Positions 14,420-29,119 of a DNA stretch of 29,119 nucleotides are shown piece after piece. The position numbers and the translations under genes are program-made. The notes beneath the pieces are model-generated. The model was not told the DNA's origin, ran no database searches, and saw only the letters and a program-made list of their open reading frames with translations. This DNA comes from a virus (lineage: Duplodnaviria; Caudoviricetes). The stretch lies in the IMG/VR virus record IMGVR_UViG_3300020388_000050, positions 1 through 29,119 of that record, one strand, 5' to 3'. Position 1 is the stretch's first letter; the number at the start of each line of letters is the position of its first letter.

Positions 14420-15033
14420 TATTCATCGCTAATTGTAGTTTTCGCAGGTTGAAAGTTATCTCTATCTATAACTCTATATGTACTGTAGTTATCAAAGATA
14501 CTATGATCTCTAGTATCTCCTTCGTGTTCTTTTAATGCAGATAAAGCTTGTAGTTCATCAACTTGGTGAAACGTATGTAAAGTTTCTGAAGCTAACATTC
14601 TATCTTGAAATATTCTTGCCGCACGAATTGTAATATATCTTCTTGCAGTTTCCGGTAATTCTATAAATTCTAAAAACCAAGTAATGTTAACTCTAATATC
14701 TTTAGTAATAGTGTAAGTATGGTTTTCTCTATCCCAAAGTTTTCTACCTCTTTCTACTAAATCTTTGTCAGCATCTTTATTTGAATTATCAACTCTCAAA
14801 GCATTAGATGGTAATTCAATTTGATTAGATGCGTTTTTAGTTAATAAATAATTTGTATCTGTGTTAAAATGCCAACCAACACTTTGTACTTCTCTTGATA
14901 CATTATCTAATATTTGTAAAGCAATTGATACATCTGTTGTAGTTGAAGATGTAATTGTGTTAACAGGGCTTTCCCCTATCGCTGTAAGCATTGTATTAAC
15001 TGCTTCCAATTTTGAAGTAACTGTAGTTGTCAT
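14419..15033 (-). CDS. gp11: Tail tubular protein A (adaptor)
   Basis: LEAVNTMLTAIGESPV, VQSVGWHFN and YITIRAARIFQ match the T7 gp11 family. Confidence 0.95.
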   Translation of the reverse strand: MTTTVTSKLEAVNTMLTAIGESPVNTITSSTTTDVSIALQILDNVSREVQSVGWHFNTDTNYLLTKNASNQIELPSNALRVDNSNKDADKDLVERGRKLWDRENHTYTITKDIRVNITWFLEFIELPETARRYITIRAARIFQDRMLASETLHTFHQVDELQALSALKEHEGDTRDHSIFDNYSTYRVIDRDNFQPAKTTISDE

Positions 15034-15045
15034 AATATAAATTTT

Positions 15046-15075
15046 ATAAAAGAGAGGCGACCGAAGCCGCCTCCC
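15046..15075 (-). terminator. Intrinsic terminator after the capsid gene (T-phi equivalent)
   Basis: Minus strand GGGAGGCGGC-TTCG-GTCGCCTCTC-TTTTAT: a 10-bp stem (2 G-U pairs), a C(UUCG)G tetraloop and a short U tract. Same position as T7 T-phi. Confidence 0.9.
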
Positions 15076-15097
15076 AAAGTAAAACTAACGTAATTAA

Positions 15098-16036
15098 TTA
15101 CGAAGTTTTGATTTCAATCGAACAGATTGGATTTAAAGGTGCGTGACCCATAGCGTATTTAGCTACCATTAACGTACCTTGTCTTTGGATTTGGTATTCC
15201 ATCTCCGTAGAAAGATCCATTAATTTAACTGTTCCAACTGCATTTTTCTGCCAAACACAACCAACTGTAGTTGAGAAGTTTCCAGCAAAATTTGTGCTAG
15301 AACCTTGATCAACACCAGAACTGATGTTTGAAGATGGTAAGTTGTTTGTAGGTACAATGTTAATACCTGCAACTTTAAGAACTTTACCATCAGAGTAAGA
15401 ACCTGATCCGCCCCAATCTCTGTTAATAACAGTAGTCGCTTGGATTAGATTGTAATATACCGCAGGAGAAACAGCACAATATCTGTCTTCCGCAGGTACA
15501 TCAGCTGCATCTAATTTTTCAGCCGCACTAAAAATAGTTGCTGCCGCAGAAGCCGCATTAGTTGCGAAGTCAGCGTCAGTTAGAGCTTCCCCTGCAGCTT
15601 GAGGTGCAGCAGCGCCTGCTCTACTATTTAAGATTAAGTTTTGATAGACGTGTTTGTCCATTTGATTTGCAAGAGCTCTACCAAGTTCTTTTGAGTAGAT
15701 AGATCTAACATCGTAATGAGACATTGCTTCGTCTATTTTTGCGATAAATACTGGTGCAATTAATAAGTTCTCAATAGAGATTGTTCTCTCATTGTGAGTT
15801 ATTGAACCACCAGTAATTTCGTTTCCTGCTGTGTGGTATGAAGCTGTTGCTTTACCAACGATAGGAAACTGTGCACTTTTACCAGAGCTAATAGTTCTGA
15901 CTAAGTGCTTGTCTAGTGTCGAGTTTGCTGTTTCAAAAGCAGTAATAACTTCTCCCGCAAATACTTTTAAAAAGTTTGCAGTAGTACTACCTGATCCAGC
16001 ATTCTGACCTATATTTGATACAGTATAATTTGACAT
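15098..16036 (-). CDS. gp10: Major capsid protein
   Basis: FLKVFAGEVITAF, RTISSGKSAQFP, HYDVRSIYSKELGRALA and AKYAMGH match the T7 gp10 family. Confidence 0.97.
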   Translation of the reverse strand: MSNYTVSNIGQNAGSGSTTANFLKVFAGEVITAFETANSTLDKHLVRTISSGKSAQFPIVGKATASYHTAGNEITGGSITHNERTISIENLLIAPVFIAKIDEAMSHYDVRSIYSKELGRALANQMDKHVYQNLILNSRAGAAAPQAAGEALTDADFATNAASAAATIFSAAEKLDAADVPAEDRYCAVSPAVYYNLIQATTVINRDWGGSGSYSDGKVLKVAGINIVPTNNLPSSNISSGVDQGSSTNFAGNFSTTVGCVWQKNAVGTVKLMDLSTEMEYQIQRQGTLMVAKYAMGHAPLNPICSIEIKTS

Positions 16037-16052
16037 TATATATATCTCCTTA
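16037..16052 (-). promoter_or_regulatory. Strong ribosome-binding site of the capsid gene
   Basis: TAAGGAGATATATATA-ATG, close to the T7 gene 10 leader AAGGAGATATACATATG. Confidence 0.85.
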
Positions 16053-16077
16053 TGTTATAGGTTAGTTGCTAATTAAG

Positions 16078-16136
16078 CGTAGTAATTTCAGTCACAGAAT
16101 TATCCGTCCTCAAACGGGTTAAGTCTTACTTTTACG
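16078..16136 (-). other. Candidate structured RNA element in the capsid 5' leader
   Basis: Inner hairpin CCGTT-TGAG-GACGG followed by ATAAT, enclosed by the outer pairing CGT(AAA)AGTAA...TTACTACG. Confidence 0.5.
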
Positions 16137-16142
16137 TGCTAT

Positions 16143-16159
16143 TCTAGGACAGCAATATA
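16143..16159 (-). promoter_or_regulatory. Candidate phage RNAP promoter (phi10 position)
   Basis: TATATTGCTGTCCTAGA shares the core TTGCTSTCYTRGA with the copy at 18910-18926. Confidence 0.5.
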
Positions 16160-16170
16160 TCCACAGAATC

Positions 16171-16914
16171 TTATAAAACTTTTGATCTAGATACTTTATC
16201 GGCAACCATTTTTCTAAATGCACTATCTGTAGCGTATCTAGGGTCTGCCATATCAGCTTTCATTTGACCAACACTTTCGTATGCTGTTCCTGATTGCTGA
16301 GCATTGTTACCTGTTACTAGATTTGGCTCTTTAGTTTCAGATTGATAACGAGCATACATACCTTTTATAGTAAATAATGCTGTATCATTATCTTTGCCAA
16401 TATTATCATTAAACTGTTGTATTTCAGCTTCAGGTAAATTTTCTGTAATCCAATCAGTCATCTTTGTATAATTATCTTCACCACCAGTGCTATCAAAAGC
16501 TTGTTGTTCAAACTTTGAAGCAACAGCATCTAAGCCAGCAAGATAATTATCTATATAAGATTTAGGTAATCCTGCTTTCTCTAGTGATTGAATTGTATCA
16601 TTACTAAGTTCACCATTTTCTTCAAACTCTTTTTCAGCAGAAGTAAAATCAAAATTAACAGGTTTATCTGCTTCAAGTTTTGTTTCTTCTTTTGGTGTCT
16701 CAGATTGTTTTCTTTCTAACTCTTGATAAGATTTAATTAAATCATCTTGTGATTTAAATTTACCAAGTATCAACTCCTCCTTTACAGGTTCGGGAGTTGG
16801 TGCTGTTTCATTAGTTGCAACGTTATTTGCATCATCAGCTTTTTTAGACATTTCGTCTATATATTCCTGCGTTTCTTTTACTTCTTCAGCAGGTACATCT
16901 ACTTTCTCGGCCAT
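16171..16914 (-). CDS. gp9: Capsid scaffolding protein
   Basis: Acidic protein with GKFKSQDDLIKSYQELE, GGEDNY...W and DMADPRYATDSAFRKMV. Lies between portal and capsid. Confidence 0.93.
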   Translation of the reverse strand: MAEKVDVPAEEVKETQEYIDEMSKKADDANNVATNETAPTPEPVKEELILGKFKSQDDLIKSYQELERKQSETPKEETKLEADKPVNFDFTSAEKEFEENGELSNDTIQSLEKAGLPKSYIDNYLAGLDAVASKFEQQAFDSTGGEDNYTKMTDWITENLPEAEIQQFNDNIGKDNDTALFTIKGMYARYQSETKEPNLVTGNNAQQSGTAYESVGQMKADMADPRYATDSAFRKMVADKVSRSKVL

Positions 16915-16923
16915 TGTTTCTCC

Positions 16924-18474
16924 TTATTGTTTTTTAGCTCGTTCTTTAAAACTATCCCTGACCATACCCATGCCTTCTTTTACGACAGCAGGGGAATTTT
17001 GTTGCATCATCATTTGTTCTTGCATTGCACTTTGCTCTGCTTGTATCTGTTCAGGAGATTTAATTAATCCTTCCATCTCCACACCAAGAGAAGTACCAAC
17101 TCGTTTAACATACTCATCTAAATTTAAATATGTCATTAGTTGTTCTGCAAATGGTTGTAGTTGTTGAACAAATGTGTTTAATCTTTGTAAATCACTTGAT
17201 CTACCTAAAGCTTCTAATCCTGTTACAATTTTAGGACGTATACTTTCTTTAGGTAAAGTAGGTAATGCTTTCTTTCTTTCCATTTGAAACATTAATCTGT
17301 TTATTAATGGAAGTTGTAATTCTTGCGATAATAAAGAATACAAGCCACCTAAACTATCGTCTAATTCTTTAGATACATAATTTATTTCTGTAGCTGTAAC
17401 TCTGTCATTATTTCTTTGTACAGATGTATTTAACATAAATGCAAACTGTAATCTTTCTTCAATCAATTTCATTGTTTGAAATGCTATATTAAAATCAGAA
17501 AACTTATTAACTTGAAGTGTAGTTACATCTTCAGCATTACCTTCACGGATTGCTCCATTAGGACTTTCTGACAATGTTTTTAAACGAGTTGATCCATTTG
17601 GTTTTACTAAAAATAAAACTTTACTTGCCGCCGCAGATCCTTCAACAACAGATCTGTATAATGCTTCAAGAGATCTAAGATCACCAATATATTCTTCTAT
17701 AAATCCTCTACCATAGTCAGCGTTATCTATTGAAGTATATCTTAAAGGTATAAATGCGTTTTTATCTATAGGATAAGTTCCTACAGATGAAGGTACTATT
17801 TGTTCATAAATTTCTTGATGTACTTCCCATTTTTTACCGTTAGCTGATCTTTTAACACAAGTGTAAATTTCACAAGTGTCATCATAACCATCTTTATCTT
17901 TATCTCCTTCAACTAATAATCTTTGTTCTTCAGTTAAAGATGATGGCGAAACCATATCTTTTGTAATAATTTCTAATACATTACCTATTCCATCTCTTTT
18001 AACTACAAATCTATCTAAATGATAAACTTTCATTTTAAGATCAGGTGTGATGTATAATAAAACATTACCACATATAATTAAATGTTTGATTGCTTCAAAT
18101 AATGCGTTTCTGAAATTGTTAACTTCCATTTCATTCATAACTACACGTTCTATAGAACCCATAGCTTTTTCAAACTCACCTTTCATATCATCTCGACCTG
18201 AAAGTTCAGACAAAGTAAACTCGTCTAACGTTAGTCTAAAGAATGGTTGATTAGGGGGAAGTAAAGCTAGAAGTAGCTTTGATGAAAGGTTATTAGTACC
18301 TCTAGCACCAATACCTTGATATGGAGTATGTAGTGTAGTGTGTTTACTGTGATATTCACGAGGCATTATAGATGGGATCGTAAACTCGGCACTGTCTCGT
18401 GCTCTATCTAAAAACGGATCTCTTATAGCTTCAAGAGTGTTATATCTTGATTTAGCTGTAGTATATTTTGCCAT
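16924..18474 (-). CDS. gp8: Head-tail connector (portal)
   Basis: PYQGIGARGTNNLSSKLLLALLPP, YGRGFIEEY, RVTATEI and TGLEALGR match the T7 gp8 family. Confidence 0.97.
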   Translation of the reverse strand: MAKYTTAKSRYNTLEAIRDPFLDRARDSAEFTIPSIMPREYHSKHTTLHTPYQGIGARGTNNLSSKLLLALLPPNQPFFRLTLDEFTLSELSGRDDMKGEFEKAMGSIERVVMNEMEVNNFRNALFEAIKHLIICGNVLLYITPDLKMKVYHLDRFVVKRDGIGNVLEIITKDMVSPSSLTEEQRLLVEGDKDKDGYDDTCEIYTCVKRSANGKKWEVHQEIYEQIVPSSVGTYPIDKNAFIPLRYTSIDNADYGRGFIEEYIGDLRSLEALYRSVVEGSAAASKVLFLVKPNGSTRLKTLSESPNGAIREGNAEDVTTLQVNKFSDFNIAFQTMKLIEERLQFAFMLNTSVQRNNDRVTATEINYVSKELDDSLGGLYSLLSQELQLPLINRLMFQMERKKALPTLPKESIRPKIVTGLEALGRSSDLQRLNTFVQQLQPFAEQLMTYLNLDEYVKRVGTSLGVEMEGLIKSPEQIQAEQSAMQEQMMMQQNSPAVVKEGMGMVRDSFKERAKKQ

Positions 18475-18483
18475 GTTTATCTA

Positions 18484-18711
18484 TTAAGGTACGTTTGCAC
18501 CTGTTCCACTTGAACCTACGCCAACTTGTAAAGGTATTCTTAATGCTTGTTTTCCTCTTTTTTTAGAATAGCTAACTTTACTAGATGTATTTGTTTGCAC
18601 TGCCTTTGGTGCTTTCTCTCTTAAACGAGTTGAAGAAGCATTGATTTCGGTTGCAGGCGGAGCTGGCACGGGAGGTGGTGGAGGTAATTTGGGTCTTGAA
18701 AATCCACACAT
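18484..18711 (-). CDS. Small virion protein (gp6.7/gp7.3-like)
   Basis: MC- start, poly-Pro stretch and KKRGKQALRIPL C-terminal motif. Immediately upstream of portal. Confidence 0.7.
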   Translation of the reverse strand: MCGFSRPKLPPPPPVPAPPATEINASSTRLREKAPKAVQTNTSSKVSYSKKRGKQALRIPLQVGVGSSGTGANVP

Positions 18712-18713
18712 AT

Positions 18714-18902
18714 TTATTTTATATCCTTGATTGTTTTGATGTTTAAAACGTTGTTTTCTTTATCATTTAGAATGTTTCTTAAATGAGATACAACACTTGA
18801 TTGACCTGCTTTAAACCATATTTGTCGTTCATTATCATTTAAATCAGGCGATTTATTAGGGAATTGTTTTTCTAAATAATCAATTAGTTCTTGCGAAATC
18901 AT
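18714..18902 (-). CDS. Conserved small T7-like protein (gp6.5 position)
   Basis: LIDYLEKQFP...P...IWFKAGQSSVV pattern. ATG at 18902 is preferred over TTG 18914, which falls inside the promoter-like motif. Confidence 0.65.
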   Translation of the reverse strand: MISQELIDYLEKQFPNKSPDLNDNERQIWFKAGQSSVVSHLRNILNDKENNVLNIKTIKDIK

Positions 18903-18909
18903 AGTTATA

Positions 18910-18926
18910 TCCAAGAGAGCAACTAT
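18910..18926 (-). promoter_or_regulatory. Candidate phage RNAP promoter (phi6.5 position)
   Basis: ATAGTTGCTCTCTTGGA, 14/17 identical to the copy upstream of SSB. Confidence 0.6.
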
Positions 18927-19255
18927 TTAGCTTGTATTTTTAGGGGGATAGGTACTACTTTAAGTACATTTTTGGTAGGAATGACCATAGTATTACCACC
19001 TTCAGCAATAACATATCGTCCATTTTTTTCATCGGTAGTAAAATCAGATGCTAATATAAAAGCATCTTCTGTCTTATTTATTAAGAAACCAACACTTAAA
19101 CATATTGTTGGTAGCATTTGTTCAATAGTCGTTAACTCGTTCCAACTACTGTCACTATTTGCGTCTTCCCAAAGTACAAAAACAAATTTATACTTCGGTG
19201 GGTTTTGACTGATCCAATGTAGGATCTTCTTTAGTAATTTTTTCATCTGTTTCAT
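18923..19255 (-). CDS. Hypothetical phage protein (WxDA...W...C.SVGFL family)
   Basis: Motifs VLWEDANSDSSW, CLSVGFL and MVIP. GAGGA RBS 5 nt before ATG 19255. Confidence 0.7.
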   Translation of the reverse strand: MKQMKKLLKKILHWISQNPPKYKFVFVLWEDANSDSSWNELTTIEQMLPTICLSVGFLINKTEDAFILASDFTTDEKNGRYVIAEGGNTMVIPTKNVLKVVPIPLKIQAK

Positions 19256-19436
19256 CAATTTCCTCTAATGTTGATCGAGTTTCTCTTTTTTCTAAAACTG
19301 TAAAAATTGCTTTATTACTTGGTGGAAAACTTAAATTAAGATTAGGTGTTTTAGCATAAAATACATCTTCCATAAGTATATCAGCACTTATGTATGTTTT
19401 CTTTTTCCATTTTTTTACTTTTGTAATATTACTCAT
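19188..19436 (-). CDS. Hypothetical protein
   Basis: 82 aa. Start overlaps the upstream stop with an AAGG RBS, and it fills the operon gap. Confidence 0.6.
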   Translation of the reverse strand: MSNITKVKKWKKKTYISADILMEDVFYAKTPNLNLSFPPSNKAIFTVLEKRETRSTLEEIDETDEKITKEDPTLDQSKPTEV

Positions 19437-19704
19437 TTTCTTTACCTTTTTCTTTTATAGGCTGTAAAGAACCATCATCATCAATTAAACTATCTACACT
19501 TTCAGTGTATATTTCATTTAATCTTTCATTGTTTCTTTGTATTTTCTTTTTAAGATGATCCTTTAAGTCTTGAATTTTAACATACAACATTTTATCTATT
19601 GTAGGATTTATTCCATACATAGGTAAATCATTTAATGAAGATATAATTCTTCTAAATCCTCTTGCTCTTTTTTCTAATTGTACTATTTGTTGTTCTTTAA
19701 TCAT
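19429..19704 (-). CDS. Hypothetical coiled-coil protein
   Basis: 91 aa, GAGAGGG RBS, overlapping-coupled in the operon. Confidence 0.65.
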   Translation of the reverse strand: MIKEQQIVQLEKRARGFRRIISSLNDLPMYGINPTIDKMLYVKIQDLKDHLKKKIQRNNERLNEIYTESVDSLIDDDGSLQPIKEKGKENE

Positions 19705-19936
19705 AATCCCTCTCTATTATCATTTCTAAATAATGAATTGCTTTTTCTATATCTTTACGTTTTCCTTTTTTAGAGTGTCTGCAAATGTACTTAATTGCAT
19801 TGCCTTCAGCGAATAATAATTTATTTTCATTTATAAACTGAGCAGGTTGGATTTTCATGCCTTTGTAATGATCTCCATCAACTTGTTTGTTTAATGAGTC
19901 ATAGGTCATATCTTTAAATATATCTTTACTTACCAT
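19697..19936 (-). CDS. DUF3310 family protein (related to T7 gp1.7 nucleotide kinase)
   Basis: QVDGDHYK...IQP...F...GNAIKYICR...K...DIEKAIHYLE signature. ATG 19936 has a GGAG RBS. Confidence 0.85.
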   Translation of the reverse strand: MVSKDIFKDMTYDSLNKQVDGDHYKGMKIQPAQFINENKLLFAEGNAIKYICRHSKKGKRKDIEKAIHYLEMIIERDYD

Positions 19937-20681
19937 TACCACTCCACAATATAGGTTGCTTCTTTTTAAAATCGTAATCAGTACTTCGTAATATACGAGC
20001 TAGTCTAGCTTGTACTAACGCATCATCATCAGTTAAACCCTGTTCTCTGTAACAATCTTTAACGACTTTCCATAAATTCTTTTTATTTGTAAGAGTCTTT
20101 TTAGTTTTTACTTCTCCATAAGTAGGTGCACCCTTATAATTATCTGTAGAGTCACCAACTAAACATTGATAATAAAAATTATAATCTGCTTGTTTCTTAG
20201 TAATACCATAAAATTCTTTTAGTGTTGGATTGTAATGTAATCCTGCTATTTGATTTAAATCTTTATCAATACTACAAATAATTTTATTACCTTTAATTAT
20301 TTTAGATGTTGCAAGTATTCCAAGTATATCATCAGCTTCTAATCTAGGTCTTACATAGCCATTATAGTTTTTAGATATATAGTCACGACAAAAAGATAAA
20401 GTTAGTGGCTTACGTTGTTTAGTTCTATTTAATTTATAATCAGGATATATTTCTTTTCTAAAATTATCTTTATCGCTAAAAGCAGATATGATTTCTTTAC
20501 ACTGTGTATCTTGTTTTAAAGTATTGTAGTAATCTTTGATTTTTCTTACGCAATCTAATTCATCACTATGTAATGTCCATATTGCGTATTCATCTTCTTC
20601 TTTACCCCATCTTATCGGCTCCTCTGTTGAGAAAGCAACTTGATAAGCTACTACGTCTGCGTCAACTAATAATGTACTCAT
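19926..20681 (-). CDS. gp6: 5'-3' exonuclease
   Basis: LLVDAD, NFRKEIYPDYKLNR, LEADD, SIDKDL, GDSTDNYKG and QARLARIL match the T7 gp6/FEN family. Confidence 0.95.
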   Translation of the reverse strand: MSTLLVDADVVAYQVAFSTEEPIRWGKEEDEYAIWTLHSDELDCVRKIKDYYNTLKQDTQCKEIISAFSDKDNFRKEIYPDYKLNRTKQRKPLTLSFCRDYISKNYNGYVRPRLEADDILGILATSKIIKGNKIICSIDKDLNQIAGLHYNPTLKEFYGITKKQADYNFYYQCLVGDSTDNYKGAPTYGEVKTKKTLTNKKNLWKVVKDCYREQGLTDDDALVQARLARILRSTDYDFKKKQPILWSGNGK

Positions 20682-20992
20682 TATCCATTTCCTTTTGGTT
20701 TTATTTTATTAAGATTTACGTGTATGACATTGCCATCACGATTTTTAATTTTGTTTCTAAAATCATCTTCATCAAAATCTTTTTCTTCAGCTTCTATCAA
20801 AGGTAATAAACCAAGATAAGCACCATGCTTTTCTATTGTTTTTAAAAATCCTGATAATATTGAACCAACTTGAACAGATGGACTATTAAGCATATCTTCG
20901 GGGTGTTCTCCGTCAGAATACTTTTCAAAGATACTATATTCTATCTTATCTTTGTCATCTTTCCTGTCGTGTAAAACTATAATAACTTGCAT
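20681..20992 (-). CDS. Hypothetical protein
   Basis: Start re-called to ATG 20992 (AAGGA RBS). TAATG-coupled to the exonuclease. Confidence 0.65.
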   Translation of the reverse strand: MQVIIVLHDRKDDKDKIEYSIFEKYSDGEHPEDMLNSPSVQVGSILSGFLKTIEKHGAYLGLLPLIEAEEKDFDEDDFRNKIKNRDGNVIHVNLNKIKPKGNG

Positions 20993-21339
20993 TTTATATC
21001 CTTTAGTTTTGCCCACCAAGCGTCTGCGATCTTGTACAAATCTATTGGTTGTTTAGCGTTTCCTTTTCTAACATTACAAGAATGACAAATGATCCATATA
21101 TTATCTTTCTCATAACCTTTATTAATATCTAGCCTATCTACTGAGGGAGAGTTTTTTTGTTTACCTTGTGGTACCAAAACAGTTTGACAACAAGGACAAT
21201 GACTTGGAGTTAATAAAATTAACTCGTCTATTGATAAACCACAATCGTGACCTTGACGTATCCGTTGATTGCATAACGCATTCGATGCCCACTTTCTCCA
21301 TTTTTTGTTAATGGGTTTGAGCCCAGTTTTTTCCAACAC
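20977..21339 (-). CDS. HNH-like (beta-beta-alpha-Me) Zn-finger endonuclease
   Basis: CPCC...SPSVDRLDINKGYEKDNIWIICHSCNVRKG. GTG start with GGAG upstream, overlapping the 3' end of the polymerase gene. Confidence 0.75.
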   Translation of the reverse strand: MLEKTGLKPINKKWRKWASNALCNQRIRQGHDCGLSIDELILLTPSHCPCCQTVLVPQGKQKNSPSVDRLDINKGYEKDNIWIICHSCNVRKGNAKQPIDLYKIADAWWAKLKDIKCKLL

Positions 21340-23062
21340 GGTATTCAGCTCCCAATGGTACCCTTAATTTAAAGTGATGCCCTGCCTCTTGTATACTTTC
21401 TACCGCTAACTTTCCTACTTTATCTGCAAGTTCGGGTTTAGTTTCTATTTGAAATTCATCGTGTATGTTTGCAATTACAAATGCGTCTATACCTTTTAAT
21501 TTATCCCAAAGTATAGTTAATGCTTTTTTCATAACTATTGCCCCGCAACTTTGGATCAACGCATTTAAACTCGAATGAGCACTTCGTATTGTAAGTATTC
21601 TTTGATCAATAGCTTTTATATATCCTGTGCTTTCTAATTTATAAATTATATCGTGTTTTATTTCTTGTAAGAAAGGCAACACTTTATAAAACTTTTCTAA
21701 TACTTCTTTAGCTTGAAAAATTGTACAGTCTAATATTTCTGAAACTCGTCTAGCACTAGCTCCATATAAAACTGCATAAAGAATAGTTTTTGCTAGAGCC
21801 CTAGATTTTAAATCTAAATTCTTTTGATTATATGTGTGTATGTCGCCATTTAAAATTAAATCTACATACTCTTTACCACCTGTGTAATTATAAATGTAGT
21901 GTGCAAGACATCGAGCTTCTAATCCTGACGCATCGCACCCTACAAGTACATAACCTAAAGAGGGAATAAAAAGCTCACGGCATTCTTTGCCGTAAGGAGA
22001 ATTTATACTAGGCACCTGCTGTAAGTTAGGTGACCTACTACTCATTCTGCCTGTAGTTATGTTCGTTATATAATTAGTATGTACTCGTCCATTCTTAACA
22101 ACTTTTAACCAAGCGTTTTTACCATCACTTAACATACCTAATCTTTTTTCAATTAATAAATATTCGTTTAGTTCTTTAGCTTCAGGATAATCTAAATGTC
22201 CTAATGTTTCTTCGTCTACTATTGGTAATCCTGTTTCAGAAAACTTTTTAGGTTTCCAGTTTCTTAATTCCATAAGTCTATTTGATATGTGTTGACGACT
22301 AGATGGATTAAACTTCATTGTTTTAGATTTTCTAATAGCTACACCTTTTTTATAACCAAGTTTTTTGTTATTAACTTTTGGTATAAATTCACCAAGATCT
22401 ACCTGCCAATCAGGAAATCTACTTTCTAAACTTAATTTAAGATCATGTGTTCTACCTAATAATTTAACGTGTAAATCTTGTGCTTTACTTTCATCAAAGC
22501 CAAATCCTTTTTCTTCTTGTTGTTTAAGTATGTTTGCTATCTCGTGTTCTAGATCTATACTTTCTTGACTAAATCCTTTTTCTAATAATTTTTTATAAAG
22601 TAATGATGTAAGTTTTACATCTTGAATACAATATTCAAGCATAGCAGGAGTAAAAGTATCAAAGCTATATATCTCTGCAAAATCACCTTTATGAAAATTT
22701 AATCTTTGACCCCAAGCTTTTAAACTATGTTTTCCAACTGTTGATCGTTCAATGCGATCACTTGCTAACAACTTATAATCTACGCTATTTGCGATGTCAG
22801 GGTAGATAAGACGGCTTAAACATAGAGTGTCGTGTACTAGATCAGGGCTATGATCATAGTCATACAAACGTTTAAGTACAGGAAGGTCGTACTTAATTAC
22901 GTTATGTCCCACGATTAAATTGTCAGCAAGTAAATCAATACCTTTCGGTATATCCCGTCCAACGAACGAAATTTCTTTTCCATCTTTTTGTAAGACTAGA
23001 CAATGTACCTTTGATGGTTTTAGACCATCTGTTTCTATATCAAAAATTATTGGTTGTTTCAT
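21308..23062 (-). CDS. gp5: DNA polymerase, family A (T7 gp5-like)
   Basis: Start re-called to ATG 23062 (584 aa). ExoI FDIETDG, ExoII GHNVIKYD, ExoIII YCIQDV, motif A DASGLEAR, motif B RALAKTILYAVLYG, motif C IHDEFQ. Confidence 0.97.
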   Translation of the reverse strand: MKQPIIFDIETDGLKPSKVHCLVLQKDGKEISFVGRDIPKGIDLLADNLIVGHNVIKYDLPVLKRLYDYDHSPDLVHDTLCLSRLIYPDIANSVDYKLLASDRIERSTVGKHSLKAWGQRLNFHKGDFAEIYSFDTFTPAMLEYCIQDVKLTSLLYKKLLEKGFSQESIDLEHEIANILKQQEEKGFGFDESKAQDLHVKLLGRTHDLKLSLESRFPDWQVDLGEFIPKVNNKKLGYKKGVAIRKSKTMKFNPSSRQHISNRLMELRNWKPKKFSETGLPIVDEETLGHLDYPEAKELNEYLLIEKRLGMLSDGKNAWLKVVKNGRVHTNYITNITTGRMSSRSPNLQQVPSINSPYGKECRELFIPSLGYVLVGCDASGLEARCLAHYIYNYTGGKEYVDLILNGDIHTYNQKNLDLKSRALAKTILYAVLYGASARRVSEILDCTIFQAKEVLEKFYKVLPFLQEIKHDIIYKLESTGYIKAIDQRILTIRSAHSSLNALIQSCGAIVMKKALTILWDKLKGIDAFVIANIHDEFQIETKPELADKVGKLAVESIQEAGHHFKLRVPLGAEYRVGKNWAQTH

Positions 23063-24626
23063 ATTCTTGTAACCTTCCTGTATCTGAATTGTATTGAAGT
23101 GTTGTTCCAATACCTGTGATACCTGCAAATCTATTTTTTAAAATTCTAACTAAAGTTTTCTTTCCATTCTCTTGATCAGAGAGTGATCTTTCTACACCAA
23201 CACAAATGTCACTTAATTGTGCAATACTTGCACTACCTCTTAATTGTCCTAGTGAAGTTTTTAAGCCATCAGTATGATCTTTATTTCCTTCGGGTCGTTT
23301 AAGATGTGAAATAATTATTACACCAATATTTAATTGTTCTGTTAATGCTCTTAATCTTGTCATTAACAAATCAATTGTTTTTCTTTCATCGTTAGTTTCA
23401 AGGCCACTAACAATAATTGATATGTGATCTATAAATAAATATTCTATGTCTAATGCTTTAGCAAAATACTTAATTTTATTTAATATTGTATTTTCTTCTA
23501 CAGATCCCCAATGATCATATAAAAATACGTTACCATTACCGATTGTTTCTTTGTATGCTTGTTCTAATTCTGTTTCAGAAACTTTATCTCTGTCTATATG
23601 AATAGGTTTATTTAAATGTAATCCTAATATACCCTCACAAGTTCTCTTTAAACTTTCTTCAAGAGATATAATCCCTATTCTTTTTCCTTTTTTTATTAAA
23701 TGGTAAGCAATTTCTTTAGTCATTAACGACTTACCAATTCCTGAACCACCACATATTGTGACTATTTCTCTTTTTCTAATACCAAATAGTTTTCTATTTA
23801 GTCCTTCATAAGGATAAAAAGCTGTCGCTTTCTCATCTTCTTTTTTAATTACTTCCCAAAGCTCCTCACCTGCAACTACACCATCAGGTCGGTAAGTCTT
23901 AGCTTCCCACATAGCTTTTATTACGTCTGAACCTAAGCCGTGTACTAACATTTCATTCACGTCTTTTAGTTCAAAGTTTGCTATTTTAGCTTTACCTACT
24001 GATAACAGTTCAGCACATTTCTTTGCACATTCTTGACCCGCATCATCTTGGTCAAAGAAAAATATTACAGATTCATAGCTTTCAATAAATTCTAGTTGCT
24101 TCTTTAACGACTTAACTGCCCCGTTAACTCCGTTAGGAATACCAACAACACTATATTTATGATTGAAAAGTTGAGATAAACTTAACGTATCTATCTCGCC
24201 CTCACAAACACATAAAATTTTAGCATTACCACTCCATAGGTTTTGGCCATATAGTGTAGCTTGGCTTATATCTCCAAGTGTTTTAAATTGTTTATCTTTG
24301 TATCTTAATTTTTGAAATACAGGTTTTTTACTTTTGTCGTAATAAGTTGCTACTTGTACAGGCTCATCATTAACTTCTGTAATTTTGTAATCCCATTTCT
24401 TACAGGTTTCCAAAGTAAGTTTTCTCTTTGGTAAACTAATTGCTTTACCTTGTAATAAATCTGTCCTAGTACTGCTTGTAGCCACCATATTATTATCATT
24501 CCCCCTAGTAGTAGTGTTGCAAACAAAACAAAAAGTGTGACCATCAGAATAGAGTGCCATTCCGTCAGACGAGGAACAATGTGTACACGGTAAATGTTTA
24601 ATAAACTCGCTGTCATCATTATTCAT
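23040..24626 (-). CDS. gp4: DNA primase-helicase
   Basis: Zn ribbon CTHC...CFVC, TOPRIM EGEID and FDQD, Walker A GGSGIGKS, IDHI and LRGSASIAQLSD. Confidence 0.97.
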   Translation of the reverse strand: MNNDDSEFIKHLPCTHCSSSDGMALYSDGHTFCFVCNTTTRGNDNNMVATSSTRTDLLQGKAISLPKRKLTLETCKKWDYKITEVNDEPVQVATYYDKSKKPVFQKLRYKDKQFKTLGDISQATLYGQNLWSGNAKILCVCEGEIDTLSLSQLFNHKYSVVGIPNGVNGAVKSLKKQLEFIESYESVIFFFDQDDAGQECAKKCAELLSVGKAKIANFELKDVNEMLVHGLGSDVIKAMWEAKTYRPDGVVAGEELWEVIKKEDEKATAFYPYEGLNRKLFGIRKREIVTICGGSGIGKSLMTKEIAYHLIKKGKRIGIISLEESLKRTCEGILGLHLNKPIHIDRDKVSETELEQAYKETIGNGNVFLYDHWGSVEENTILNKIKYFAKALDIEYLFIDHISIIVSGLETNDERKTIDLLMTRLRALTEQLNIGVIIISHLKRPEGNKDHTDGLKTSLGQLRGSASIAQLSDICVGVERSLSDQENGKKTLVRILKNRFAGITGIGTTLQYNSDTGRLQEYETTNNF

Positions 24627-24843
24627 TTAGAGGTATCCACCTTCCTGCGTTAAGGCGATCATCTTCTACCTTTTTAAGTTGTTGTTTTAATTCTGTGTTT
24701 TCAGATTGAAGTACACCATTTAATTTTTGATGTGCTTCACTAACAGCTTGGCTATCTTTAACTCGTTTATAAAGAGCCCGTATCTGTTCATCTTTTTCTT
24801 TTATTAATTTATTCCATTCGTCTGTTGTTTTTTGTATTTTCAT
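24619..24843 (-). CDS. Hypothetical coiled-coil protein
   Basis: 74 aa with a GAGGAAGGA RBS. Occupies the slot where T7 has gp3.5 but shows no amidase motifs. Confidence 0.7.
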   Translation of the reverse strand: MKIQKTTDEWNKLIKEKDEQIRALYKRVKDSQAVSEAHQKLNGVLQSENTELKQQLKKVEDDRLNAGRWIPLNE

Positions 24844-25258
24844 AATCCTTCCTCGTTATCCAATCATTAGGAATAACTTTGTCAGCAAATACAAATCCGT
24901 GTTTATTACACCAATCTGCATAACTTGTTTTAGATCCTTTGTAGATTTTGTTTCTAGAATTACCGAATACAAATCTAATATCTAAATCAGGTTGTTGTTC
25001 CTTGACTAACAAATGTTTTTTCCTATCTTCCCTTTTAAAAAAACCTTTGATCTCAATTAACACTCCGTTATCTAATTCAATATCGGGTGTATATTTATGT
25101 TTCGTTGAAGGCTTGAAGTAACAAACCACTCGTTTCTCATACTTAAAATTAATGTTTCTTTGTTTTAAGTTATTGATAACGTTTTCTTCAAGCCCACTCC
25201 GATAACTAGAAGTCCGCTTCTTGCGATACGGGTGCTTCTTTTTTCCCACTAGGTACAT
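24809..25258 (-). CDS. gp3: Endonuclease I (Holliday junction resolvase)
   Basis: YRSGLEE, YTPD, IEIKG, DRKKHL, LDIRFVF and SYADWC match T7 gp3. Start uncertain; ATG 25258 gives 149 aa. Confidence 0.93.
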   Translation of the reverse strand: MYLVGKKKHPYRKKRTSSYRSGLEENVINNLKQRNINFKYEKRVVCYFKPSTKHKYTPDIELDNGVLIEIKGFFKREDRKKHLLVKEQQPDLDIRFVFGNSRNKIYKGSKTSYADWCNKHGFVFADKVIPNDWITRKDYENTKNNRRME

Positions 25259-25799
25259 TGGAAACCTTTTCCTCTCCAAAGCCATAATCATAATCAGAAG
25301 ATTTTTTATCTCCGTTTGATTTTGGTTTCTCGGATACAACTTCAATTAATTGAACAGCTTTCAGTCTTAAACTTACTCCCACTCCTTGTAAGTTGTTATG
25401 CCAAGATACAGCTTGAAAGGCGATCTTCATTTTACTGCCACTATATACAGGTTGTTCTTCTGCTACAGTTTTGTCGGCATTTAAAATCTTCGGTCTTTGC
25501 TCGAAGTCAGTTCCGTCCCTCATTGTTACCTTTTGTTTGAGTTTAAATTTAAACTCTATGCCACCATCTTTTAAAACTTTGTATTGATTATGTGCTGATC
25601 TTTTGTCAGTATTTTCTTTTTGCTGACGTGCTTTCAACGTTTCCTCATACACTTTTACAAATGGTTTAGCTTCACTATCAGAAAGTATTAACTTTACAGA
25701 AAATACTCCTGCTTTTTCAAATTGCGTATCTGCCGTAAAAATATACGGATAATTCGCAACACCAACGGGTGTCGTATGGATTTTCTTTTCGTCTATCAT
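25206..25799 (-). CDS. gp2.5: Single-stranded DNA-binding protein
   Basis: TTPVGVANYPY, FKFKLK, GVSLRLKAVQLIE and a C-terminal ...EADF. GGAGG RBS. Confidence 0.92.
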   Translation of the reverse strand: MIDEKKIHTTPVGVANYPYIFTADTQFEKAGVFSVKLILSDSEAKPFVKVYEETLKARQQKENTDKRSAHNQYKVLKDGGIEFKFKLKQKVTMRDGTDFEQRPKILNADKTVAEEQPVYSGSKMKIAFQAVSWHNNLQGVGVSLRLKAVQLIEVVSEKPKSNGDKKSSDYDYGFGEEKVSNVPSGKKEAPVSQEADF

Positions 25800-25811
25800 A
25801 TGTGTTTTACC

Positions 25812-25828
25812 TCCAAGAGTGCCTCTAT
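25812..25828 (-). promoter_or_regulatory. Candidate phage RNAP promoter (phi2.5 position)
   Basis: ATAGAGGCACTCTTGGA, running into the GGAGG RBS of SSB. Confidence 0.6.
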
Positions 25829-25869
25829 GTTTGTTCTCCTTTGTGAGAATTTATTGAAAGCGAGACTAT

Positions 25870-26076
25870 TTACTTACAATAAAAACCTTGATAAGTTCCC
25901 TTATCATTATTTAAATACCAACCTTGACCTTTTGGATTATCCCAACTGTGTTTAGCATTTTTGTTACGCCACTTTTCAGCATAATCATAACACTTATCTA
26001 AACTATTAAATACTTTTGGTAGCGTAGCTTGTATTATAGTTCCATTAAACATTAATAATAACAAAGTTAGTTTCAT
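25870..26076 (-). CDS. Small hypothetical protein with hydrophobic N-terminus and two Cys
   Basis: 68 aa, MKLTLLLLMF...FNSLDKC...GFYCK. Starts 2 nt after the upstream stop. Confidence 0.65.
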   Translation of the reverse strand: MKLTLLLLMFNGTIIQATLPKVFNSLDKCYDYAEKWRNKNAKHSWDNPKGQGWYLNNDKGTYQGFYCK

Positions 26077-26078
26077 AA

Positions 26079-26450
26079 TTATTTTGGAAAATCATCATAT
26101 TCTCGCCACTCATAGTATTTTTCTTTTTTATTTGTAATTATGTTTAAAGATTTTAAGTCTTTCTTTTTAGGATAAATATATCCAAAGACACCTTTGTCTA
26201 TTTCTTTAAACTCATAACCCGCACCAAGTTCAATACGATTTGCATTACGCAAATCATCAGGATTAACTTCGTAAAGTTCTCCCTTAATTTTATATTGCGA
26301 ATCTTTTTTTTCCCATACCAACGGAAACCAAAAACCCGTCATCATAAAACCTTTTCGTTTTGTAATATAAGTTCCTATCTTTTTACTTTTAGATAATACG
26401 TAATTTAGTGCGTACCCTTCTTTAAGTGTTCCATATACAAATAGTTTCAT
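26079..26450 (-). CDS. Gamma-glutamylcyclotransferase-like (GGCT/AIG2/YtfP family) protein
   Basis: N-terminal LFVYGTLKEG loop, FP, and GELYEV...RIE...Y with the conserved Glu. Confidence 0.85.
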   Translation of the reverse strand: MKLFVYGTLKEGYALNYVLSKSKKIGTYITKRKGFMMTGFWFPLVWEKKDSQYKIKGELYEVNPDDLRNANRIELGAGYEFKEIDKGVFGYIYPKKKDLKSLNIITNKKEKYYEWREYDDFPK

Positions 26451-26504
26451 TAGTGCCCTTTCTGTTTTTTGTTATATATTATTTAGTATCGCTTTCGCAA
26501 CTAT

Positions 26505-28973
26505 TTAACTAAAAAAATACTTACTATGTGCAATTTCGTTGATGTCCAAATTTCCACGTGCAGGTGGTGGAGTTAAACGAGTTCGTAATTTTGCTGGCAG
26601 CTGAGCTTCCCAGCTCCTGTGTAACTCGTTAAGATAATCGTTTTTAAACAGGTCAATAACGACTTGTCTTATAATTTGATGCAGCTGGTCAACTCTATTT
26701 GGATTAGTAGCAAAACTATCGTGTACCATTAACAAATCGTTAATAGGATTTTCTGCATTTTTACAATACAAAGCAACTGCTTGGGCTACGCAACCATCAA
26801 GTGAGTGAACGATATTGGGTGACACCGATGAAGAAAATTTCCTAGAATCTTTACGATTTAGTTCTCTCCTATATGTTGTGTAAACTAATGATCCACTTAT
26901 TGCTGTTTTAACTTTAAATGGAATTAAATATCTATAGTCCATTTCCACAGGAAAACCCATAGGTGTAACCCATTTCATAACCATATTAGCTTTAGCAAAT
27001 AACTTTGCACAATCTTGAAACCACTTCATTAACTGTGCCTCTAAATCTATTTCTTGTTCCATTTTATCCCAAACTATTTTAGCTAACCAACGACAATCAC
27101 TAAAACCATCATCTGCTAACACTTTCTTTTCGGGATTAAATTCAATGATGCTTTTGTATTCATCAAAAATTTGTTGGCGAGCACCATAGGGTTTTAACGA
27201 GTACACATAAGTCATAATGTTTCGTTTTACTATTTTTCTTGTAATACCAAACTGTAACCAACGATTAGCCTCCTGTGATCCTTGTCCTGCTTTCAGTTCT
27301 ACTTCTGCTTTAACTTTTTCTGCAACTGCTGTGTAAATGTCTTGTGGTACATCACTAGGTAATACATTTACTTTTCTTGCTGTGTTTTCATCACGCATTA
27401 ATATAGATAAAACCTGAAGTCCTGAACAAGTAGCGTCCATTGACACAGGTAAATTACACAGGTACCCCAGACCTTGCTCTTTAACTCGTTTAAGGTGCAT
27501 ACAAGTATTAAGAAATTCCATAGGTTTATCTGCGAAGTTCCAACCCTTGTTATCCAGAGGGGCATCAGCGTAGCTGATAAACTCGTTAAGTTTTTCTTCT
27601 GTAAAGGCATAACGATCATTAAAAGAAACTTTATCATTACCCCAAGTGTTAGAAGCGTGAACATATAACCAAAATTTTCCTACCTCGTTAAGTGGTTCAC
27701 TATTTGCAAATGTTATTAACGACTTAATTTTTTGATCAGTCTGATAGGTGATGGTAGTTCCCATACAATACAACCTACCTCGTTTATCAGCAAAAATTGC
27801 AAAGTAAATTCTTTCAAATTCTAAATATTCAATAGCTAAATCAATAGCAACTAATGTATTTAATACTTTAGACGACCTAGCTATTTCATCATTGTAAACT
27901 CGGTTAAGATCTCTTTTGTATTTAATTCTTAGTTCAAGTATTTCATCTACTTTAGGATCTCTATAAATACCTTTTGGTTTACCTTTTTCATCAAGTAAAC
28001 TTTCTCTATCGGGAAACTTACCCAACCTTAAATTATTGTCCCATATAGTTTTAAATACATCAAACATATCCTTATCAATTTTAAACGGTACTGATTGCAA
28101 GTGATTTACTGCATCGTAAAAATCTTTTAGTTTATCGTTATCTAATGTGTGTAAATAAGTATAATCGTGAGTTTTAATTAATGGTTGTTTGGAAAGATAC
28201 TCATTATGAAAGCCCCCATTAAAAGGTGTAGAGTATGGTTTAGGTGGTACTATCATCGCTTTGTAATATGGCGTAAGTACACTACATTGAAACGAGTTAT
28301 CTTTAATTTTTTGCTCTACTTCAGGCTTCAATACTAAATAATTTACAGTTTTATCTTTACGTTCTCTAACAGGTTTTAACTGACAAAGGCCTGTACTTTT
28401 AATACAAAGATCAACCAACTTTAATCCAACAAGTGCTTGTTTTCTTATGTCCCATTTATCAACTTCAACTTTGTACTTGTTTAGGGTATGTGCAAAAACT
28501 CGTTTACGGTGTTTGACATTGCTAGTTCTTTTTAACAAATCTCTTAAAACAACTGTGTGAAGGTGAGGTTCTTTTGCTTTGAACACTTGGTTCTGAAGTT
28601 CAACTTCAATCATACTACCAATTTGTAATGCTGTCTGTGCTAAAGTTTTATGTGAGGCAATACAATCAATAATTATTTTTAAAGTTATAAGTGCAATTTT
28701 TTTAGAGTCGTTTAAATCTTTTAATGGTTCACTTGCTGTATGTCTTCGGCCTGCAACTTTGTATTGTGATTTTATAAATAATTCGATTCGTTCTGATAAA
28801 GGTACTAACAACTGTTTTTGAACATAGACAAATGGTGGTGTTACACTATTTCTACCTTTTGACTGATTCTTTCTTTCGGCTCGGTCATAACGGTCTTTAC
28901 CAAGTTTAATCCAAGTTCCTTCTCTAATTTGCTCTTGATCCTGTAAGCTCGTACTCGTACCTTCTTTTACCAT
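26505..28973 (-). CDS. gp1: Single-subunit phage DNA-directed RNA polymerase
   Basis: DKRGRLY, motif A DATCSGLQ, motif B RKIVKRNIMTYVY, PNIVHSLD and motif C VHDSF. GAGGAG RBS. Confidence 0.97.
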   Translation of the reverse strand: MVKEGTSTSLQDQEQIREGTWIKLGKDRYDRAERKNQSKGRNSVTPPFVYVQKQLLVPLSERIELFIKSQYKVAGRRHTASEPLKDLNDSKKIALITLKIIIDCIASHKTLAQTALQIGSMIEVELQNQVFKAKEPHLHTVVLRDLLKRTSNVKHRKRVFAHTLNKYKVEVDKWDIRKQALVGLKLVDLCIKSTGLCQLKPVRERKDKTVNYLVLKPEVEQKIKDNSFQCSVLTPYYKAMIVPPKPYSTPFNGGFHNEYLSKQPLIKTHDYTYLHTLDNDKLKDFYDAVNHLQSVPFKIDKDMFDVFKTIWDNNLRLGKFPDRESLLDEKGKPKGIYRDPKVDEILELRIKYKRDLNRVYNDEIARSSKVLNTLVAIDLAIEYLEFERIYFAIFADKRGRLYCMGTTITYQTDQKIKSLITFANSEPLNEVGKFWLYVHASNTWGNDKVSFNDRYAFTEEKLNEFISYADAPLDNKGWNFADKPMEFLNTCMHLKRVKEQGLGYLCNLPVSMDATCSGLQVLSILMRDENTARKVNVLPSDVPQDIYTAVAEKVKAEVELKAGQGSQEANRWLQFGITRKIVKRNIMTYVYSLKPYGARQQIFDEYKSIIEFNPEKKVLADDGFSDCRWLAKIVWDKMEQEIDLEAQLMKWFQDCAKLFAKANMVMKWVTPMGFPVEMDYRYLIPFKVKTAISGSLVYTTYRRELNRKDSRKFSSSVSPNIVHSLDGCVAQAVALYCKNAENPINDLLMVHDSFATNPNRVDQLHQIIRQVVIDLFKNDYLNELHRSWEAQLPAKLRTRLTPPPARGNLDINEIAHSKYFFS

Positions 28974-29022
28974 ACTCGTTATCTACTCCTCAAATTGTTA
29001 GGGTTAATAATAAAACAAAGTA

Positions 29023-29066
29023 TTGCAAATCCTTGTATGTGGGTTCGATTCCCACCGTTGCCTCCA
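29023..29066 (+). mobile_element. attP core: 3' half of a tRNA-Cys(GCA)
   Basis: TTGCAAA anticodon loop, TCCTT, GTAT, T-arm GTGGG-TTCGATT-CCCAC, acceptor strand CGTTGCC, U73 discriminator and CCA. No 5' half (D-arm or acceptor) upstream. Confidence 0.9.
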
Positions 29067-29092
29067 AAGTGTTGCAATACCTTATCATTTGT

Positions 29093-29119
29093 TTATTTAC
29101 TCATCGCTTCGTCTAAAGC
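29093..29119 (-). CDS. 3' end of an upstream gene, probably the tyrosine integrase
   Basis: ...ALDEAMSK-stop, open to the window edge. Integrase identity is inferred only from adjacency to attP and from the known int-attP-RNAP layout. Confidence 0.45.
   Translation of the reverse strand, partial: ALDEAMSK

Follow-up and report, generated by a model that had tools for sequence, protein, structure and literature searches.

A tRNA-Cys attachment site in the likely early operon of a T7-like SAR11 phage and its possible part in silencing the phage RNA polymerase

The window, a stretch of 29,119 nucleotides, is a 29-kb T7-like phage contig whose main genes all lie on the minus strand. The core genes follow the T7 order: RNA polymerase (RNAP), SSB, primase/helicase, DNA polymerase, exonuclease, head-tail adaptor, capsid, tail and internal protein. 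The closest cultured RNAP is that of pelagiphage HTVC201P with 31% identity, which is the maximum among cultured phages; the integrase reaches at most about 34% and no cultured phage has a blastn match to the window, so that these comparisons do not support genus-level relatedness to a cultured member. A gamma-glutamyl cyclotransferase-like gene is found immediately after RNAP (window 26079-26450, minus strand).

Over 7.1 kb the contig L001 matches the window at 99.35% identity. It continues through the last open reading frame of the window, which there proves to be the end of a 289-residue tyrosine integrase (PF00589), and on into a 118-residue regulator. The first-pass annotation had suspected a tyrosine integrase in the gene upstream of RNAP, this is confirmed by the domain match in L001. 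The regulator matches phrog_9665 (E=2e-19) and is 27-32% identical to annotated MarR-family phage genes, it has no Pfam match. The attachment site (attP) is intergenic and lies about 950 nt past the marR stop codon. Ahead of its early promoter, L001 also carries, in the other orientation, a gene resembling class II glutamine amidotransferases (L001 62-1069, minus strand).

The spacer between int and RNAP is 119 nt long and contains the 3' half of a tRNA-Cys(GCA) on the plus strand (Table 1). This 44-bp half and its flanks AAGTA and TCCTT are as first described; it comprises the GCA anticodon loop, the T-arm and the acceptor strand with CCA, and 49 nt separate the RNAP reading frame from the anticodon loop. 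The half is matched by the Rfam tRNA family (E=0.0012), and ARAGORN finds no whole tRNA in the window. Rfam matches to mir-5681 and to plastid families at attP were rejected, as hairpin shape alone lies behind them. The 44 bp hold as a tRNA half and not as an identity core: identity to SAR11 tRNA-Cys is limited to 17 bp (29022-29038) and the T-stem is swapped for compensated pairs. The phage T-stem GTGGG/CCCAC is present in none of the 120 host loci listed (at least 120 matched), 108 of which have the common host allele CCCGG/CCGGG. This swap explains why the genome collection contains no exact copy of a 40-mer taken from the phage half. All three T-stem alleles among relatives are paired, which implies selection for a working tRNA after integration. 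We regard attP as almost certainly real.

Table 1. Positions of the polymerase gene, attachment site and predicted RNA elements in the window.
Feature	Position	Strand	Basis
T7-like single-subunit RNA polymerase, 822 aa	26505..28973	-	PF00940 E=2.5e-94; phrog_414
Shine-Dalgarno-like GAGGAG of RNAP	28986..28991	-	Sequence; similar in relatives
Helix B 3' arm (predicted), covers 5' half of Shine-Dalgarno	28989..29004	-	Complement about 990 nt upstream, at marR end, L001 2698-2711 (beyond window)
Weak promoter-like match TTGCAA, 16 nt, TAACCC (low confidence); would survive integration	29001..29028	-	Relaxed pattern
Stem A 3' arm (predicted): overlap and RNAP-side core site	29014..29028	-	Fold and pairing comparison
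RNAP-side half of likely integrase core site (AAGTA)	29018..29022	+	Replaced by host sequence in attL L040; same TACTT flank in Leu-type relatives
7-nt anticodon loop, likely crossover overlap	29023..29029	+	Host-to-phage switch at or just beside loop in L040, L244, L263
tRNA-Cys(GCA) 3' half repairing host gene at attL	29023..29066	+	Intact tRNA-Cys in L040 = host 5' half + phage half (ARAGORN)
T-arm, phage-specific compensated stem	29039..29055	+	Three stem alleles among relatives, all paired; unlike 120 host loci
Stem A 5' (int-side) arm (predicted)	29072..29086	-	103/105 cells paired in 7 related sequences (overstates independent events); G.U on mRNA strand
Tyrosine integrase, last 8 codons + stop	29093..29119	-	Continues in L001 as 289-aa integrase with R-H-R-H-Y residues

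A metagenome scan returned 12 loci, of which 11 are attP and one is an attL (L040); the scan pattern included the phage T-stem, so that the host 3' half (attR) could not match. In L040, 60 bp of non-phage DNA are followed by an intact tRNA-Cys starting GGCAACG, int and marR. The upstream host DNA is identical to Pelagibacter locus L084 at 59 of 60 positions. Both an attL made of repaired tRNA and integrase side and a host tRNA-Cys beginning GGCAACG had been predicted; the former is seen in this metagenome contig and the latter is exact, in SAR11. The host tRNA-Cys 5' half occurs in at least 120 genome loci, and the organism is a member of the Pelagibacterales in 80 of 80 among the matches listed. 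Four DNA runs contain no att junction and no joint or loose end at att.

A search of 401 SAR11-family genomes for the RNAP gave matches in six. In G070 an attR (L244) is present at tRNA-Cys, with a phage RNAP 47% identical to that of the window; the host XRE gene comes first, followed by tRNA-Asn and the tRNA-Cys 3' half, both antisense, then by about 55 nt of leader from the phage, a small ORF and RNAP. L263 is a second attR of this type, from a more distant phage at the same tRNA-Cys. The predicted attR of RNAP side plus host DNA is thus seen in two more distant phages, and none was found for the exact clade of the window. Junctions between host DNA and RNAP are present at tRNA-Leu in four genomes, three of which have int 36-38 kb away on the same contig; G014 has RNAP matches with no tRNA junction. 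Whole permuted prophages of a related group, running from RNAP to int, occur in 3 of the 401 genomes, and a close integrase of the window's clade in none of them. The more distant relatives carry a small CxxC...CxxC ORF between att and RNAP (L244 1314-1490, L263 169-345, L264-L266).

Apparently complete T7-like prophages of 36-38 kb are found at tRNA-Leu in G050:C1, G247:C6 and G210:C2 (L257, L258, L259-L261). In these the host tRNA promoter faces RNAP, and a hairpin with a U-run lies between the two in some. Terminator scans of the three prophage attR regions found none; one hairpin with a U-run scores z -1.3, which is too weak to use. The tRNA-Leu prophages of the four genomes belong to the split-RNAP group. 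An interpretation of the split RNAP in the four SAR11 prophages as prophage inactivation was rejected, the split being a known lineage trait according to the available part of PMC6811365.

Integrases that are 73-88% identical to that of L001 target either tRNA-Cys or tRNA-Leu(TAA), in opposite orientation (L012, L014, L016-L019, L174). The phage-side core GGA-7 nt-TACTT (window 29018-29034) is common to Cys- and Leu-targeting integrases, and SAR11 tRNA-Cys and tRNA-Leu(TAA) share GGA/TCC beside the loop. Judged from these sequences, a new overlap and tRNA half may be enough for retargeting between Cys and Leu. In the Leu-type members the int side bears the 5' half of the tRNA in sense orientation, so that integration would leave the host tRNA-Leu promoter of attR directed at RNAP, with about 45 nt of leader between them; no terminator was found in the one Leu-type member scanned. 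At the Cys attR both host tRNAs are transcribed away from RNAP. Of 76 host loci, 73 have an XRE gene on the RNAP strand immediately past tRNA-Asn, and this gene points at RNAP.

Among 29 distinct integrase alleles with enough flanking sequence, att and marR are both present in 18 (11 of the Cys and 7 of the Leu type) and both missing in 11. The sequences are related, and a tree of low resolution points to perhaps three or four separate losses. Members of the close group that lack att have the promoter immediately in front of int, and int overlaps RNAP or stops within about 30 nt of it, so that RNAP there must be transcribed from upstream. The relatives lacking att and marR keep an intact integrase as the first gene behind the early promoter (L003, L013, L015, L026, L164, L175-L185). 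Their int has a dN/dS of 0.06-0.14 versus 0.06-0.20, the same purifying selection. No tRNA fragment above threshold occurs elsewhere in seven att-less loci or in five records, which are 47-75% complete and so leave room for another att. An intact int with no attP suggests that Int uses a different site or has a further function.

A TTGAC-17-TA promoter behind two short repeats is present in 22 of the 28 loci queried. In L001 it lies about 1.7 kb before RNAP, and pattern scans detect no same-strand terminator between early promoter and RNAP in L001 or L019. The early operon is likely to comprise the promoter, small ORFs, marR, int, attP and RNAP, and it is very probable that RNAP is fed by the upstream early promoter. 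We infer read-through transcription across att from the conserved promoter, the lack of a terminator, the abutting of int and RNAP in att-less relatives and the helices on the mRNA strand described below. RNAP is likely the last gene of the operon and integration would therefore remove its promoter. On this reasoning the claim of the first-pass annotation that RNAP is severed from upstream early promoters is supported, with one weak promoter-like match on the RNAP side (29001-29028) against it. A strict pattern scan of 28700-29119 finds no promoter; the one relaxed, host-type match partly overlaps the region 28974-29022, where an RNAP promoter active in the prophage would have counted against the annotation. 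The relaxed pattern occurs in the leaders of 7 of 8 relatives of the Cys type and in none of the 4 of the Leu type. RNAP had been thought to keep little more than its ribosome-binding site after integration; the 49 nt also hold the 3' arms of two predicted helices. The Shine-Dalgarno-like sequence is 12 nt from the RNAP ATG (window 28974-28991, minus strand). Relatives have their ATG three codons further upstream; the window reads ATA at that place, and its RNAP start may therefore be weak or non-AUG.

A motif ending CTCTTGGA is kept across relatives before SSB (25812-25828, minus strand) and before ORF 18914 (18910-18926, minus strand), and is a candidate promoter for the phage polymerase. 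A profile built from these same sites scores strongly at two positions in the window but at no position in the RNAP leader, where its best match ranks 2019 of 29097. A 197-nt contig from RNA library X20 bridges int, att and leader with no mismatches; it is strandless and may come from DNA, and is weak evidence. The RNA runs X16, X17 and X19 contain no att-bridging piece, at contig level, where gaps prove nothing; ordinary host tRNA-Cys is present in X17 and X20. A contig of RNA library X16 joins the promoter-proximal ORF region to the marR end (L001 2079-2704), skipping 624 nt, and is probably from a marR-less variant or relative.

Stem A is a predicted 15-bp stem that holds the att fragment in its loop. 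Its z in the window is -3.90 for the mRNA strand and -1.94 for the opposite one. Variation in the stem is mostly from G.U to A.U or U.G to C.G in the seven Cys-type sequences, two of which are nearly identical. In four Leu types the stem is weaker and has no mRNA-strand bias. Long pairing across att is also predicted in seven of nine cultured spacers with no consistent strand bias, so DNA arm sites stay possible there. The predicted stem A straddles the crossover and may be an RNase III site that separates the int message from that of RNAP. The sib retroregulation of lambda depends on an RNA structure beyond int that is separated from int by integration, with RNase III cleavage lowering the expression of int. 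Stem A may resemble sib in this respect but straddles the crossover itself, and its RNase III role is a prediction. Lambda sib is mentioned in the available text of PMC6379469.

Helix B is a predicted, covarying pairing of 12-18 bp in which the final five or six marR codons meet the ribosome-binding region of RNAP over a distance of about 1 kb. Exact copies of the motif occur in L001 at those two places only. In 16 loci with eight distinct 12-bp arm pairs, 96 of 96 cells are paired (91 Watson-Crick, 5 G.U, 0 A.C), counts which overstate the independent events since the sequences are related. Three columns have changed on both sides, and the loci include a subgroup with 55% integrase identity. 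In 9 of 12 loci helix B comes out best when set against 212-341 control windows, and it is missing from 11 of 11 cultured phages. Both Leu codons in the marR arm are the rare TTG in 16 of 16 loci (TTG is 8% of TTA plus TTG in 14 window genes); single-codon conservation is also found at 16 of 52 invariant marR positions. Global folding recovers helix B in full in L019 and in part in L001 (7.9 expected pairs). From the attP to the attR model the exposure of the Shine-Dalgarno sequence goes from 0.31 to 0.01 in L019, and it is unchanged at 0.24 in L001. A local Shine-Dalgarno hairpin was rejected as a general switch, being strong in the L019 attR model and weak in Cys types. Helix B probably acts as RNA, and it likely couples translation of RNAP to translation of marR. 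In MS2 coat-replicase and in rplJ-rplL, long-range coupling is brought about by pairing of the upstream coding end with the downstream start region. Helix B is similar in this predicted coupling, the downstream target here is the lytic polymerase.

These results bear on how a T7-like prophage keeps a self-sufficient polymerase silent. The best explanation of the above, which we consider fairly probable, is that the tRNA-Cys attP lies in the early operon and that integration strips RNAP of its promoter and splits the two predicted helices, as one layer of silencing beside MarR. The early transcript would run from the promoter through marR, int and att into RNAP, and stem A and helix B would process or restrain it. 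The two arms of stem A and of helix B are parted by integration, which would take away the promoter and the upstream helix arms together, and MarR or the marR message would add a second layer. That the cut contributes materially to silencing at tRNA-Cys is slightly more probable than the contrary. It is doubtful that the cut alone silences the prophage, and we think it unlikely that it suffices. A more tentative extension, which we rate as rather unlikely, is that the lysis-lysogeny switch may be written in RNA and flipped by recombination. A single transcript of the free phage would form both helices, and separation of their arms would alter the output of MarR, of the integrase and of the polymerase together. 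For example, a cut in helix B shortly ahead of the marR stop codon would then destabilise MarR until integration, and the marR message of the prophage could block stray RNAP message in trans. If true, this would be integration-dependent immunity through RNA structure and not through a protein tag.

Control could instead lie in repression by MarR on DNA. On this view the two inverted 12-18-bp copies serve as operators for MarR or as arm sites for the integrase, and it is incidental where attP lies. The MarR model is a hypothesis in the literature; the accessible part of the LUZ100 paper, which cites it from Boeckman 2022, places MarR sites on either side of a promoter upstream of RNAP (PMC10134795). 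It is in keeping with the presence of marR and att together in 18 of 18 alleles and the absence of both in 11 of 11, and with the inverted repeats that surround att in cultured phages with no consistent strand bias. However, five of five deviations between the copies are compatible with G.U pairing on the mRNA strand and none gives A.C, and the marR copy retains rare TTG codons where the leader copy tolerates the matching change. L001 has no copy at the early promoter. One copy lies about 960 nt from the crossover, which is far for an integrase arm site. We regard this alternative as unlikely.

It is less probable still that integration is a rare and transient by-product of lytic growth with no regulated lysogeny, in which the location of attP would have no regulatory role and the helices would process or tune the lytic message. 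Cyanophages integrate with no stable lysogens, at 0-1.6% in ocean data, according to the available text of PMC8776855; 11 of the 12 metagenome matches are attP, and relatives lacking att and marR are common, with int under the same purifying selection. A compensated tRNA half, however, matters only where the cell survives integration, and whole prophages of related T7-like pelagiphages are found in SAR11 genomes and in a complete Fonsibacter genome described in the available part of PMC6811365. We find it hardly credible that loss of the promoter through recombination suffices to switch the prophage off, with excision switching it back on. The lack of a strict promoter on the RNAP side and the direction of the host tRNAs at the Cys attR are consistent with such a switch, and recombination acts as one in mycobacteriophage BPs (PMC3694055, in the part available). 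It fails for the Leu-type alleles, 7 of the 18 with att, which belong to this clade and share its leader and in which the host tRNA promoter would face RNAP. In addition, marR is never lost while att is kept, and at tRNA-Cys the host XRE gene may read through into RNAP.

The layout of int, attP and RNAP is already known; repair by a 3' half, the joint loss of marR and att and the covarying predicted helices appear new against the literature searched. In HTVC019P-type pelagiphages attP lies between integrase and RNAP in all 12 that integrate (Zhao et al., 10.1101/410191); the accessible text of that work proposes no regulatory role for attP, and its main text has no occurrence of 'promoter'. 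The phage of the window is like HTVC021P, HTVC022P, HTVC121P and HTVC201P, as far as these are described there, in its MarR-like gene, tyrosine integrase, attP before RNAP and attB in SAR11 tRNA-Cys(GCA). HTVC201P and HTVC021P have the same loop orientation as the window. In the available descriptions the published Cys pelagiphages carry the tRNA 5' part or a short core, whereas the window has the 3' half, whose T-stem is swapped and which lies on the side of int. The spacer is 119 nt here and 158-284 nt in HTVC019P-type Cys pelagiphages, and helix B is absent in HTVC019P-type cultured phages.

LUZ100 and Pasto also have a marR-int operon read from a host promoter upstream of RNAP, with the first RNAP made by read-through; LUZ100 differs in that int is followed by a terminator and RNAP is preceded by a phage promoter, and control there is proposed to rest on MarR binding to DNA (PMC10134795, available part). 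Scans of the present sequences detect no such terminator and no such phage promoter, with one weak host-type match before RNAP. The T7-like cyanophages P-SSP7 and S-TIP37 share a tRNA-derived attP directly downstream of int, with site-specific integration shown; they differ in the tRNA-Leu target and in that no stable lysogeny was found, and T7-like cyanophages with this layout integrate rarely (PMC1079782 and PMC8776855, in the parts available). Mycobacteriophage BPs has a small integrase, and recombination at its attP alters the state of a control gene. There attP is inside the repressor ORF and a degradation tag is removed, whereas the site here is intergenic and recombination would alter transcript linkage and RNA pairing (PMC3694055, available part). 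No proposal that integration silences a T7-like RNAP was found in the literature searched, which included the available parts of PMC12753301, PMC7576135 and PMC10142737 and mostly excluded subscription journals; nor did a description of stem A or helix B surface in it.

The clade offers a 119-nt spacer, natural variants lacking att and marR, two target tRNAs with opposite transcriptional consequences, and two covarying helices whose pairing could be disrupted and then rescued. Together these features make integration as a switch testable in reporters. A repeat scan of window 14000-29119 gave nothing specific. A GC-containing palindromic element is found after RNAP (26485-26507, minus strand), with an inverted copy before SSB (25855-25872, minus strand). 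It is gone from both places in L002-L006 and kept in most relatives, and is possibly an operator or a processing site.
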